DNA from: Escherichia coli
Lineage (GTDB): Bacteria > Pseudomonadota > Gammaproteobacteria > Enterobacterales > Enterobacteriaceae
Reading direction: 5' to 3' (one strand)
DNA length: 59,578 nucleotides
NCBI RefSeq assembly: GCF_003334255.1
Contig: NZ_QOWU01000030.1
How positions within the stretch are numbered: position 1 is the first letter of the stretch; every line of letters begins with the position of its first letter. This document shows positions 54,055-57,171 of the stretch, piece after piece. A program made the position numbers and the translations under genes. The notes under the pieces were generated by a model. That model worked only from the letters and a program-made list of their open reading frames with translations. It made no database searches and had not been told where the DNA came from.

Positions 54055-54083
54055 ACAAATAATTTTTGTTCAAAATTAACGCT

Positions 54084-54386
54084 ATGAGACCCTTTATGAA
54101 ACACTTATCCTCCCGTGCAGCCACTGCGGATAATAATCGTATCGTTACAATTGAAGACGTTTACACAATCGCATTCTCGCAACCAATTCACACCGAATCA
54201 GCGTTGGGGCAAAGGTGGATGTTGATCCATACTGGTGAATATGAAAGTGCCAGCGATGCAAAACGCTTCCTTGATACGCTCGTCACCGGGCACTGTGCTT
54301 GCATGGTAACACCATCACCTGTTCTGGATCATGACACCTGGCTGCGTATCCGCCTGCTGATGGGCGAGATAAGGGATGCCAAATAA
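54084..54386 (+). CDS. Hypothetical protein, about 100 aa
   Basis: ORF only; start uncertain (TTG 54066 or ATG 54084). Confidence 0.35.
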   Translation: MRPFMKHLSSRAATADNNRIVTIEDVYTIAFSQPIHTESALGQRWMLIHTGEYESASDAKRFLDTLVTGHCACMVTPSPVLDHDTWLRIRLLMGEIRDAK

Positions 54387-54477
54387 ACATTCATGGCCCC
54401 AACGCATAAAAATAACGACGGGGACTCTGGCAGTGGTACCATTCTTTTTACATAGAGCCAATATATAAACAACTTTT

Positions 54478-54798
54478 CTATGATAATATCTTTATCATGT
54501 TATAAATAATTGTCCCCTCAGCAGAAAGGGCCCAAATAGAAAAAGCAAAAATCCTTATAAAAATATTCTTTACAAGCGTTCCTATATACAAACAAACTAT
54601 ATAAACCAGCCAGAACAGAATGACTGCAAAAGAAACACACACGGCCCCCATAAAAATAAATGTCATCGAATCCCATGGTTTCACCAGTACAACCGGAACC
54701 ATGGCTGCCAGAACAATAAGAGCAGCATTACCCAACAGCGTCTCTCGAATAATATCCCTTATAATCTCCAGTTTTTCTTTATGCTGTTTAATTTTCAT
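54478..54798 (-). CDS. Hypothetical small membrane protein, 106 aa
   Basis: Two predicted TM helices; in an AT-rich stretch. Confidence 0.4.
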   Translation of the reverse strand: MKIKQHKEKLEIIRDIIRETLLGNAALIVLAAMVPVVLVKPWDSMTFIFMGAVCVSFAVILFWLVYIVCLYIGTLVKNIFIRIFAFSIWALSAEGTIIYNMIKILS

Positions 54799-55057
54799 AT
54801 GAACCTCATTGATTTCATCCCGAAAAGGAAAAGATTATATAACGAAATACTTTCAATCTCCTGACTCCGTCTGCTCTGCAGCATAATGCCAGACCAGCGG
54901 CATGCTAAATCACGTCCTGTCCGAATCCTTTTCATTCACGCTTAAAACAGAGTTAAAAGCACTCTTGAAACACACTCGATCATAACGATCGAAATAACTC
55001 GTTTCCGTTCAGTAAACACGCTCTTTAGACTTAACATATGAACCGCACGGAGGTGAA

Positions 55058-55879
55058 ATGAAACCCAACAGCACAGGCATTGCTGCCCGCATGATGCTCT
55101 CCATTGACAGGGTCCGGATTTGCGAAGCTCTGCTCAATAACCGCCAGTTGCAGTCCACTCCTCTGCAGATCCGTTATCCGCAGGGTGTCAGAGAAGCACT
55201 CGGAATAATGAGCGAGCAACTCTCCCTTTCTGTATCCGACCTGACGCGTATCCTGGTCGAAGATGCATTAACTGAAATGTTTCTCCCGGCTGAAAACATC
55301 GTTCACCGTCTTATCTGCCGGACAGAACACATCATGCAGGCACATGATGTCTGCGTAACAACGATGACAACGTTACTGGCTCCCTGGAATATCCGTCCTG
55401 CCGTTTTCCGTGACCCGGACAAACTCGCAGATTATCTGACAGGAGAGATTCTGACTGCTCTGGCTGACTGGTTTTATCTCAACCCGGAATGGCTGAACGG
55501 CAGGGTACGTTATCCTTTAAGCCGTGCCGGTGAGTGGCCAGCAACACAGGATGCGTTCTGCCAGCTTATTTCAGCCAGCGATAATGTGGATATTATTATC
55601 TGGCACAGTTTTCCTTTTGCCGGTGTTCATTCACAGGAATATTGCGGTGTACTGTTCCGCAAGAAAAAAGAAATTAATAAAGCCATCATTTATCCTGTAC
55701 TTTCTTTATCACCTGTAAGAATGAATAAGGAAAAAGAAAACTGGTTTCACACTGCCCGCAATTTATATGCAAAGACATCCGTCCGGACCGTAACGCTTCG
55801 TCCGGCACAGGCAGAATATCTGATGATAGGAAAAATATTACCTGCTGAGTTATTCAGTATACCGTTATTACCCTGGTAA
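55058..55879 (+). CDS. Hypothetical protein, 273 aa
   Basis: GGAGG SD 7 nt upstream; no recognisable catalytic motif. Confidence 0.5.
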   Translation: MKPNSTGIAARMMLSIDRVRICEALLNNRQLQSTPLQIRYPQGVREALGIMSEQLSLSVSDLTRILVEDALTEMFLPAENIVHRLICRTEHIMQAHDVCVTTMTTLLAPWNIRPAVFRDPDKLADYLTGEILTALADWFYLNPEWLNGRVRYPLSRAGEWPATQDAFCQLISASDNVDIIIWHSFPFAGVHSQEYCGVLFRKKKEINKAIIYPVLSLSPVRMNKEKENWFHTARNLYAKTSVRTVTLRPAQAEYLMIGKILPAELFSIPLLPW

Positions 55880-55968
55880 TAACGCAGAGAAAAAACCAGT
55901 AAATTTTTAATGGCACAGTCGTGTCATACCGTTGCTGTACCCAAAACACCTCAAACCAGGAAACTGAA

Positions 55969-57171
55969 ATGATGATGAATATGCACATTACCCAAACTCT
56001 CATCGCATCTGCTGTTTTATTTTCCTTTAATTCAACAGCCGCAACTTCATATTTTGAAGCCCGCAATGATGCAATGGGGGGAACCGGGGTAGCCTCCTCT
56101 CACTACGGTGTGGCACCTCTGGCAAACCCGGCCCTGCTGACAAAAGCCGGTCCGGAAGATGACTTCAGTCTTCTGCTTCCGTCCGTTGGTGGGCAATTGT
56201 CCGATCCGGGTAATATCAGTGACAACGCAGACAAAATCAGTGATGACTGGAAAGCCTTTGATCGTGCCATCGACAGTCAGAGCAACGTGTCGCAGACTGC
56301 TGCACGTCTGAAAACGCGACTTCAGGACTTCCGTCACACGCATGCTGACGCACAGGTGGGAACATCTGCTGTGGCGACTCTTCCCGGTGACACCCTCGCT
56401 GCCGCTCTGATGCTGAAAAGCTACGGTACGGTCAGTGTCGACGGTAAAGTCAGTGATGCCGACCTGAACTATCTGGAAAGCATTGCAAACAGTAACGGTC
56501 AGGATGTGGATAAAGACAGACTGACCTCTCAGGCTTTTGCCCGTGCCGCACTGGTCACCGATGTGGGTATTGCTCTGGCTACAGAACTGGAAACGGCCGG
56601 ACAAAAATGGTCTCTGGGCTTCACACCAAAATTCCAGCGTGTTGACCTGTTTAACTACAACGTGCTGGTTAAAAATTACGACAGCAGCGCTTTCAAAGGC
56701 GACCGTTACCACAACACCAGAAACGGCATTAACGCTGATATCGGGGCCAGCATGGACCTGGATGACAACTGGACACTGGGTCTGGTCGCACAGAACCTGC
56801 TCCCCCGCAGTATTGAGACAAAAGAAGTGAACGGTGTCACTGAAACTTTCAGGATCCGCCCGCAGGTGACTGCCGGTGCCTCCTGGCACAACGACATGTT
56901 CACTACAGCACTGGATGTTGACCTGACCCCGGCCAGTGGCTTCACATCAGACAGTAAACGTCAGTTTGCTGCCATTGGTGCTGAATTTAATGCCTGGAAA
57001 TGGGCACAGCTGCGCGCCGGTTACCGTCAGAATCTGGCCGGTAACGACGGCAGTGCATTCACGGCCGGGGTTGGTATCTCACCGTTTGATGTGGTTCACC
57101 TTGATGTGGCAGGCCTGATCGGCACGGACAACACTTACGGTGCGGTCGCACAGTTGCAGTTCACCTTCTGA
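55969..57171 (+). CDS. Outer-membrane beta-barrel protein, FadL/TraF-like (tentative), about 400 aa
   Basis: Signal peptide (MMMNMHITQTLIASAVLFSFNSTAA), C-terminal aromatic residue (…AQLQFTF), N-terminal region resembling the FadL-family NPAL segment. Confidence 0.55.
   Translation: MMMNMHITQTLIASAVLFSFNSTAATSYFEARNDAMGGTGVASSHYGVAPLANPALLTKAGPEDDFSLLLPSVGGQLSDPGNISDNADKISDDWKAFDRAIDSQSNVSQTAARLKTRLQDFRHTHADAQVGTSAVATLPGDTLAAALMLKSYGTVSVDGKVSDADLNYLESIANSNGQDVDKDRLTSQAFARAALVTDVGIALATELETAGQKWSLGFTPKFQRVDLFNYNVLVKNYDSSAFKGDRYHNTRNGINADIGASMDLDDNWTLGLVAQNLLPRSIETKEVNGVTETFRIRPQVTAGASWHNDMFTTALDVDLTPASGFTSDSKRQFAAIGAEFNAWKWAQLRAGYRQNLAGNDGSAFTAGVGISPFDVVHLDVAGLIGTDNTYGAVAQLQFTF

Follow-up and report, generated by a model that had tools for sequence, protein, structure and literature searches.

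The block that follows the shufflon recombinase gene rci in the window (the whole analysed stretch of Escherichia coli DNA, 59,578 nucleotides long) is the traE-traF gene pair of IncI-type plasmids accompanied by two lineage-specific small ORFs, an ordinary arrangement that is already catalogued. In this genome the pair is chromosomal, lying in the pheV island at tRNA-Phe, and is not plasmid-borne. We assign a probability of roughly 70% to the complete explanation, namely that the block is the end of an IncI backbone lodged in the pheV island and carries an accessory module made up of a TraE regulator and a FadL-like TraF. The window itself offers nothing unusual; the value of these observations is for annotation, with backbone taking the place of cargo and a chromosomal pheV island that of a plasmid. 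A first-pass annotation had described the region as a cargo block with four ORFs at 54066-54386 (+), 54478-54798 (-), 55058-55879 (+) and 55921-57171 (+). All four are present at these positions and the same four genes are found in RefSeq. The designation as cargo does not stand, as the two large genes belong to the conserved transfer-region backbone of the IncI complex and only the ~1-kb segment with ORF1 and ORF2 is variable. The features of the region are:

46465..57171, + strand: plasmid-like stretch that begins within pilQ and extends to the stop codon of traF, with at least 91% nucleotide identity to IncK2/Z-type plasmids
52885..54054, + strand: rci shufflon recombinase gene, with tyrosine-recombinase NCBIfam matches; upstream edge of the block
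54096..54386, + strand: ORF1, 96 aa, soluble, no known family; RefSeq ATG start
54478..54798, - strand: ORF2, 106 aa, plausible small membrane protein (about three hydrophobic segments) encoded in an AT-rich insert
54976..54992, no strand assigned: palindrome of 17 bp, TCGATCATAACGATCGA, containing a pair of GATC sites; may serve as an operator or promoter element
55058..55879, + strand: traE, 273 aa, cytoplasmic, predicted DNA-binding protein
55969..57171, + strand: traF, 400 aa, with a signal peptide and a predicted FadL-family outer-membrane beta-barrel; ends in QFTF

Identity and predicted structure of TraE and TraF

By sequence comparison, the 273-aa gene is the orthologue of the traE of IncI-type (MPF_I) elements: its product is 56.7% identical over the full length to TraE of R64 (NC_005014.1), and the gene occupies the same position between rci and traF. 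It is intact and full-length, 99% identical at the protein level to the commonest protein cluster (P0001), and is under purifying selection, with a dN/dS of 0.19 across lineages. Both traE and traF are conserved genes that have carried names since the sequencing of R64 without an assigned function, and TraE of the MPF_I class has been described as a protein whose "function [is] still unknown" (PMC4027160). The earlier reading treated the gene as a blank; TraE models confidently as a DNA-binding protein made up of an RHH-like segment at residues ~33-75, an HTH of the XRE type at ~85-148 and, at the C-terminus, an alpha/beta domain spanning ~160-273. TraE recovered no Pfam match even at an E-value of 10, with HTH and RHH families staying below significance, and weak RelB/RHH matches (E 0.03-0.1) were seen in 6 of 50 members of the family; the DNA-binding assignment therefore rests on the predicted fold. 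The best PDB sequence matches of TraE were viral polymerases (E 0.01), which we treated as chance, and PDB sequence searches with either TraE or TraF returned nothing usable. A perfect 10-bp inverted repeat at 55863-55884 was rejected as a regulatory site, because the invariant LLPW-stop that closes the traE reading frame overlaps with it.

For traF, conservation indicates that translation most likely begins at ATG 55969 and not at the GTG of the longer ORF: the ribosome-binding motif ACAGGAAA 5' of this ATG is invariant in six diverged elements, and this start yields a signal-peptide-like N-terminus. The resulting distance from traE is 89 bp, in place of the previously reported 41-bp gap, which depended on a GTG start unsupported by conservation. 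The gene is intact and full-length, its product being 97% identical to the commonest cluster (P0034) and 74.5% identical to TraF of pESBL, and its homologues are likewise named TraF. The sole Pfam match is to TraF_2 (PF13729), with an E-value of 1.4e-68 and all 264 model positions (1-264) covered. The beta-barrel topology proposed earlier is upheld by structure prediction, which gives a FadL-type barrel of about 14 strands at moderate confidence (pLDDT 68). Residues 1-39 and 62-78 score below 50 and correspond to a poorly modelled hatch region, so that the plug or hatch and a lateral opening are putative features not resolved in the model. In this poorly modelled hatch-like N-terminal segment, N53-P54-A55 is invariant in 29 homologues. 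The NPA motif is a hallmark of FadL.

Several other identities for this gene were considered and set aside. A relationship to PorV/PorQ of type IX secretion is rejected by NCBIfam scores far below the cutoffs (44.1 bits against 90 for PorV_fam and 20.6 against 250 for T9SS_OM_PorV). A match to phrog_38290 does not point to a phage gene: the only records of a "phages" collection that matched, with 39-40% identity, were two ~500-kb bacterial contigs and one of 1.6 kb that carries no annotation. Equivalence to the TraF of the F plasmid, a periplasmic thioredoxin-like protein, is dismissed because the only Pfam match is to TraF_2, a barrel family; the homologue of F TraF in IncI plasmids is TrbB (PMC4027160). 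Finally, a 280-aa minus-strand ORF within traF (56047-56889) has no independent support and was treated as a shadow ORF.

The variable segment and the palindrome upstream of traE

Variability in the block is confined to the ~1-kb segment with ORF1 and ORF2, which is complete in only ~130 plasmids and differs in content among them; in pTMSA992, for example, a gene for a 181-aa lipoprotein stands in place of ORF2. The annotated start of ORF1 is ATG 54096 (96 aa), with TTG at 54066 as an alternative. Compared with variants of 61% identity, the two ends of ORF1 are conserved, its middle has diverged and an indel of 9 nt keeps the reading frame; its dN/dS is 0.8-0.9, and its coding status is therefore doubtful. 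ORF2 lies, as had been noted, on the opposite strand in an AT-rich stretch (GC 0.37-0.38, against ~0.50 in its surroundings). Hydropathy segments at residues 19-45 and 42-86 make it a plausible membrane protein; its relatives comprise only 31 clusters, all from E. coli and none with an informative name, and it is thus an orphan confined to E. coli elements. Its length is kept in a 53%-identical variant, and its dN/dS of 0.41, like the 0.19 of traE, indicates more than a chance ORF. ORF1 was also considered as a diverged version of protein X, the product encoded ahead of traE in ICEs, and this was ruled out by hmmsearch (E 0.4-0.8). Neither ORF1, ORF2 nor TraE has matches in NCBIfam, PHROGs or PADLOC, and no link to defence systems emerged.

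At 66-82 bp upstream of the traE ATG lies the palindrome TCGATC-N5-GATCGA, whose core is invariant across six aligned diverged elements while the flanking intergenic DNA is otherwise poorly conserved. The exact form occurs in 14 fetched loci, in each case 5' of a traE-like gene, and the rest of the 1.76 Mb fetched contains none; in the window one match is observed against 0.13 expected. We infer that TraE binds the palindrome, although another factor could bind there or the element could respond to Dam methylation alone. Scans for sigma-70 promoters and terminators gave numbers of sites not above shuffle expectation, and no Rfam match was obtained in 53900-57700.

Genomic setting, distribution and possible roles

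The chromosome of E. coli STEC2018-553 matches the window at 100%, and RefSeq annotates all four ORFs there. The window contains tRNA-Phe at 35787-35862, a XerC/D-like recombinase at 36062-37057 and a relaxase whose TIGR03760 score of 177.3 bits exceeds the 161.4 cutoff, placing it in the PFGI-1 class; with a tyrosine recombinase adjacent to a tRNA and such a relaxase, the island shares this combination with PFGI-1/SPI-7-type ICEs. The rci gene, annotated as a site-specific integrase, follows pilV and the shufflon and has a dN/dS of ~0.1. Megablast matches to plasmids start at 46465 and end at 57171, the alignment terminating at the TGA of traF, and the terminator hairpin of the plasmids is absent from the window. 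Downstream of traF the island looks degraded, with a fragment of an autotransporter, higBA genes that carry frameshifts and pieces of IS elements. The annotation of the matching chromosome lists no T4SS genes over the 27 kb that follow traF, that stretch being devoid of a full MPF_G set. Literature searches on PF13729 and on a description of a pheV/pilV island found nothing relevant.

Beyond this strain, the traE-traF region has 129 full-length matches at 98% nucleotide identity in IncK/Z-type plasmids, with the genes annotated as TraE and TraF. The pair occurs in ~1,900 of the 72,556 plasmids searched (TraE homologues in 1913 records, TraF in 1936), many of them of the IncI complex, as well as in ICEs; the record counts of the two are equal for Salmonella, Shigella, Klebsiella, Enterobacter and Citrobacter. 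In species-representative genomes, a TraE-like gene lies directly 5' of TraF in 13 of 82 TraF loci. These 13 include MPF_I contexts (L007, L011 and L012) and MPF_G ICE contexts (L004, L017 and L050), and seven of them lie next to a PFGI-1/MobH relaxase, in surroundings that lack pil genes over 8-10 kb. The remaining 69 TraF-family loci are without TraE, as in Pantoea, where a TraF-like gene sits between zur and dusA, and distant TraE-like proteins are also found solitary in chromosomes. The partnership of the 273-aa gene and the barrel gene is therefore specific to the clade found on mobile elements.

Under the explanation we favor, an IncI-type thin-pilus/transfer backbone has its distal end in this region, in the order rci, a variable slot filled by ORF1 and ORF2, traE and traF, and a pheV ICE-like island would have acquired everything from pilQ to traF when it recombined with an IncK/Z-type plasmid. 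TraE would control its own promoter, and thereby the downstream traF, via the GATC-containing palindrome. TraF would be a secreted, plugged FadL-family barrel that, by analogy with FadL/TodX, most likely lets through or binds a hydrophobic ligand, or else provides a docking site for a partner at the surface. The two would constitute a self-contained accessory module, dispensable for DNA transfer itself, that travels between plasmids of the IncI type (MPF_I) and ICEs of the PFGI-1/SPI-7 type (MPF_G). The new leads are accordingly a transcription-factor-like TraE, a candidate operator upstream of it, and a FadL-type barrel that moves with it across secretion-system classes. An extension of this proposal, which we regard as speculative and rather unlikely, is that the pair is a portable sense-and-respond module, in which a hydrophobic cue would be let in or bound by TraF at the outer membrane and TraE would sense it via its C-terminal domain and act at the double-GATC palindrome, whose two Dam sites could render expression sensitive to hemimethylation, with a burst just after host entry or replication. 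If so, the label "conjugal transfer protein" would hide an establishment or host-sensing function in both IncI plasmids and SPI-7/PFGI-1-type ICEs.

That label implies that traE and traF belong to the conjugative T4SS, whether as structural or as functional components, a reading we consider highly improbable. It draws on the location of both genes inside the R64-type transfer region, their tra names, the TraE profile made for the MPF_I class owing to its systematic association (PMC4027160) and the conjugative typing of most carrier plasmids by MOB-suite. The available genetics does not back it: in pESBL Tn-seq the non-essential scores were 0.93 for TraE and 1.00 for TraF, the required-for-transfer score was 0.00 for both, and the essential cluster was given as traH-trbC (PMC4288162, Table 2), which contradicts an essential role in conjugation for the barrel, earlier proposed to be an uptake channel, a conjugation-associated porin or a phage receptor, and, on this literature, leaves both genes outside the core MPF_I set. 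That screen used solid medium and one recipient (PMC4288162), so a conditional role in transfer is still conceivable. The pair moreover accompanies two T4SS classes that are unrelated to each other and occurs where no T4SS is nearby, TraE is by prediction soluble and DNA-binding, and the IncI counterpart of F TraF is TrbB (PMC4027160).

An alternative with a small but real chance is that the two genes serve the type IVb thin-pilus (pil) system as accessory components, with TraF as an outer-membrane partner for pilus function or for PilV-mediated recipient recognition and TraE as a regulator of the pil module. All six loci with pilV within 10 kb, whether MPF_I or MPF_G, show the order pil, rci (missing in L007), traE-traF; the plasmid-derived patch in the window spans pilQ exactly to the traF stop codon; and the island retains pil and traEF without T4SS genes in the 27 kb downstream. 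Against this, pil genes are absent within 8-10 kb of the seven X-traE-traF loci beside an ICE relaxase, some chromosomal TraF-family genes have neither pil nor transfer genes within 10 kb, the pil operon already supplies a secretin, PilN, and the palindrome is found only once in the window, not again near the pil genes, for example. We think it quite unlikely that the block is unrelated cargo or a decaying remnant with no current function in the chromosome: the degraded DNA downstream, the variable ORF1/ORF2 segment and the relaxed dN/dS of ORF1 would fit such decay, but traE and traF are intact and near-identical to their commonest clusters, traE is constrained across lineages, and the upstream palindrome and ribosome-binding site are preserved.

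Comparison with known systems

The gene order rci-traE-traF is shared with R64 and ColIb-P9 (IncI1) and with IncB/O/K/Z plasmids; TraE and TraF resemble their R64 and pESBL counterparts to the degree given above, and the region as a whole has 98% nucleotide identity to IncK2/Z-type plasmids. Unlike in IncI plasmids, the genes of the window lie on the chromosome, within a pheV island whose relaxase belongs to the PFGI-1 class, and traH and the genes beyond it are missing, as plasmid similarity stops at the traF stop codon. The spacing between rci and traE also differs, being ~1 kb with ORF1 and ORF2 in the window as against ~150 bp in IncI1 plasmids.

TraF has a sequence identity of only 13-19% to the FadL/TodX family, is assigned by Pfam to TraF_2 and not to the FadL family model, and has no fatty-acid or aromatic catabolic genes nearby. 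It is likewise distinct from PorV/PorQ and the FadL-like subunits of the BAM complexes of Bacteroidota, its PorV_fam score being far under the 90-bit cutoff, and no T9SS genes are found among the annotated neighbours of traF; a type IX system is not known from Enterobacterales. TraE differs from ImmR of ICEBs1, the CI/Cro-like repressors of phages and the controller C proteins of R-M systems in having no significant Pfam HTH or RHH match. In comparison with XRE and RHH regulators, the predicted presence of both an RHH and an HTH in one chain, together with an extra 110-residue alpha/beta domain, makes its architecture an unusual one.

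Gene content of the block downstream of rci

The first-pass annotation described the DNA downstream of rci as a cargo block of two small ORFs, a 273-aa protein and a FadL/TraF-like barrel. All four ORFs are present, and RefSeq annotates the same genes in the matching genome:

54096-54386, + strand: ORF1, 96 aa counted from the annotated ATG
54478-54798, - strand: ORF2, 106 aa
54976-54992: 17-bp palindrome TCGATCATAACGATCGA, 66-82 bp upstream of the traE ATG
55058-55879, + strand: traE, 273 aa
55969-57171, + strand: traF, 400 aa from the favoured ATG

The existence of ORF1 is thereby upheld, with the start moved from the TTG at 54066, as first proposed, to the ATG at 54096 used by RefSeq. 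For traF, the most likely start is the ATG at 55969 and not the GTG at 55921, because in an alignment of six diverged elements the ACAGGAAA motif preceding this ATG is kept while the sequence further upstream is unconserved. The traE-traF intergenic gap would therefore be 89 bp, in place of the 41 bp given initially.

In a plasmid search the 3.1-kb region matched 1,836 records in all, nearly all typed conjugative, including 129 plasmids that match over the full length at 98% identity; those closest to the region type as IncK2/Z. Named versions of the matching genes are called traE and traF and are flanked on the upstream side by pilV, the shufflon and rci, and on the downstream side by traH, traI and traJ. 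At the protein level, TraE-like and TraF-like sequences occur in 1,913 and 1,936, respectively, of 72,556 plasmid records, with equal counts in Salmonella, Shigella, Klebsiella, Enterobacter and Citrobacter. Judged from these matches, names and counts, the two large genes belong to the conserved backbone of the IncI complex and are not cargo, a label that fits only the small rci-traE segment.

This slot is variable. The 1-kb rci-traE segment is whole in only ~130 plasmids, and most IncI-complex plasmids share just its last ~140 bp, palindrome included; the rci-traE spacing is just ~150 bp in IncI1 plasmids, in contrast to ~1 kb in the window. The IncK2/Z plasmid pTMSA992 (locus L008) combines ORF1 with a different gene at the ORF2 position, on the other strand than ORF2, whose 181-aa product carries a signal of lipoprotein type (…LLSGC; L008 1940-2485), so that the gap is a swap site for small envelope proteins. 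ORF2, which as originally noted lies on the opposite strand in an AT-rich stretch (GC 0.37-0.38 versus ~0.50 in the flanks), is plausibly a small membrane protein, given that its length and hydrophobic pattern are preserved in a 53%-identical variant with a dN/dS of 0.41; it is found in E. coli sequences only, under no informative names. ORF1 has a dN/dS of 0.8-0.9 and ends that are almost invariant in nucleotides around a diverged middle with an in-frame 9-nt indel; its coding status is doubtful.

The chromosomal island around the block

The end of the window is identical (100%) to the chromosome of E. coli STEC2018-553, and the same junctions occur in eight E. coli chromosomes. Core genes, among which an IS110-family IS621 transposase gene lies between ruvX and yggR (~18314-19294), continue as far as a tRNA gene, where the island begins:

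35787-35862: tRNA-Phe (pheV)
36062-37057, - strand: XerC/D-like tyrosine recombinase, island start
37100-38854, - strand: PFGI-1-class ICE relaxase (TIGR03760 at 177 bits, above cutoff)
38691-40199, - strand: UvrD-like helicase
~57338-57652: C-terminal autotransporter barrel fragment
~57782-58357: higA/higB pseudogenes, frameshifted
58342-59355, - strand: intact 337-aa hypothetical protein with no family match

Past the helicase the order is pil operon, shufflon, rci and the ORF1/ORF2/traE/traF block. With a recombinase, a PFGI-1-class relaxase and a helicase at tRNA-Phe, the 'plasmid-like' pil/tra genes therefore sit within a chromosomal ICE-type island. Across the relaxase stretch 37057-38700 the window is offset by one base from the 100%-matching RefSeq record, and the relaxase is a 584-aa ORF in the window versus 542 aa annotated in that record, which points to either a single-base indel or another source strain.

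The island is mosaic in structure. Its close match to IncK2/Z-type plasmids (at least 91% at the nucleotide level) starts inside pilQ (~46465) and stops exactly at the traF stop codon (57171/57172), and pilL to pilP, further upstream, differ far more from their plasmid counterparts. The terminator hairpin that follows the traF stop codon in plasmids is missing from the window. Instead, traF is followed by the autotransporter fragment, the frameshifted higBA, the 337-aa protein, IS fragments and a type III restriction system; the annotation of the matching chromosome lists no T4SS genes in the 27 kb downstream of traF. The DNA of the 337-aa gene matches, at 93.6% identity, a stretch adjacent to a MobA/TraI relaxase gene in Enterobacter and Serratia plasmids. 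The simplest reading is that an ICE-type island had its own pil…traF module partly overwritten through recombination with an IncK/Z-type plasmid, and would afterwards have decayed on the far side.

TraE, TraF and their partners across mobile elements

We compared 82 TraF-relative loci, 80 fetched from species-representative genomes and two from earlier look-ups. In 13 of these a TraE-like gene lies directly upstream of TraF on the same strand. pilV lies upstream in six of the 13; three of these continue into an IncI-like T4SS (traH, traI, traJ, traK) and three into the unrelated MPF_G set typical of SPI-7/PFGI-1-type ICEs. No pil genes lie near the remaining seven, which come from Erwinia, Brenneria, Pectobacterium and an Enterobacterales MAG. 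In the annotated one of the seven, Erwinia sp. S63 (L020), a tyrosine recombinase gene is followed by those for a PFGI-1/MobH relaxase, a 186-aa protein, the TraE-like protein and TraF, with flanking ORFs largely common to the other six.

In all 13 loci, each on an ICE or plasmid and none from the IncI1/K group, the traE-like gene is directly preceded by the gene for a 147-220-aa protein, X (L004 8306-8776; L012 8440-8916; L020 8088-8648; ten other loci), which has a conserved SHLL…QEWRW motif and matches nothing in Pfam or NCBIfam; there X, traE and traF form a three-gene unit. The window lacks X, and ORF1, considered as a relative of X, was rejected as having no relationship to it.

Around the other 69 TraF relatives, TraF_2-family barrels at 39-57% identity, no TraE, pil or T4SS gene was detected within 10 kb; the one such example that was checked sits between zur and dusA, two core genes of the Pantoea sp. 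SOD02 chromosome (L043 9914-11200). The mobile-element TraF may have derived from, or seeded, a chromosomal outer-membrane protein. Some distant TraE-like proteins likewise stand alone. Taken with the two T4SS contexts, these distributions indicate that the TraE-TraF partnership is confined to a mobile-element clade, independent of T4SS type.

The six-element alignment, with members as distant as IncK/Z, IncI1, a Citrobacter element and a Pectobacterium element, also shows that conservation in the intergenic DNA is limited to the palindrome arms and the AAATAACTCGTT that comes after them. Besides the copy of the window, the exact TCGATC-N5-GATCGA is found in 14 fetched loci, each copy closely preceding a traE-like gene, with no further occurrence in the 1.76 Mb of fetched loci (in the window, 1 observed versus 0.13 expected); a variant, AGATCGAACCGATCGA, occupies the same position in MPF_G-type ICEs. 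The palindrome, which holds two GATC (Dam) sites, is an obvious operator candidate to which TraE might bind.

TraE has no match in Pfam, NCBIfam, PHROG or PADLOC and belongs to a small family (33 clusters at 90% identity among 5.8 billion proteins; 105 representatives in a profile search among 1.84 billion). We read it as a cytoplasmic, predicted DNA-binding protein with three predicted parts:

~residues 33-75: RHH-like segment
~residues 85-148: XRE-type HTH
~residues 160-273: C-terminal α/β domain

TraF as a predicted FadL-type protein and comparison with known systems

TraF matches Pfam TraF_2 over the entire model (E 1.4e-68), its NCBIfam matches being to the PorV family only and all sub-threshold. 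An AlphaFold2 model from 29 homologues, of moderate confidence (pLDDT 68, pTM 0.67), has ~14 long strands plus a helical insert on the extracellular side; the C-terminal residues of the protein are ...QFTF. The NPA motif is the hallmark of the FadL hatch; in TraF, N53-P54-A55 is invariant among homologues, within an N-terminal segment that is poorly modelled. As far as the fold goes, the FadL/TraF-like call was thus right; what TraF transports, and how, is something we infer.

In transposon sequencing of pESBL, TraE and TraF received 'non-essential' scores of 0.93 and 1.00 and a 'required for transfer' score of 0.00 each, and the general conjugation cluster was described as spanning traH to trbC (PMC4288162). 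A survey of T4SS classes made a TraE profile for MPF_I, called its function 'still unknown', and gave the homologue of F-plasmid TraF as TrbB, not the IncI-type TraF (PMC4027160). Our literature search found no paper on the function of traE or traF, and the label 'conjugal transfer protein' probably misnames both products. We prefer a model in which TraE would regulate an outer-membrane, FadL-type TraF serving an accessory role not essential for transfer, a function that we infer for the pair.

The present analysis adds a fold-based assignment of TraE as a predicted DNA-binding regulator, the conserved palindrome ahead of traE as a candidate operator, and evidence that traE and traF travel together between elements whose secretion systems differ. 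The original observation holds, barrel prediction included, apart from the cargo label for the block as a whole. Nor is the block new, since it consists of traE-traF, so named since the sequencing of R64, plus a variable insert: the traE product of the window is 56.7% identical to that of R64 (IncI1), and its TraF is 74.5% identical to TraF of the O104:H4 plasmid pESBL, which lies at the coordinates given in the published Tn-seq table.
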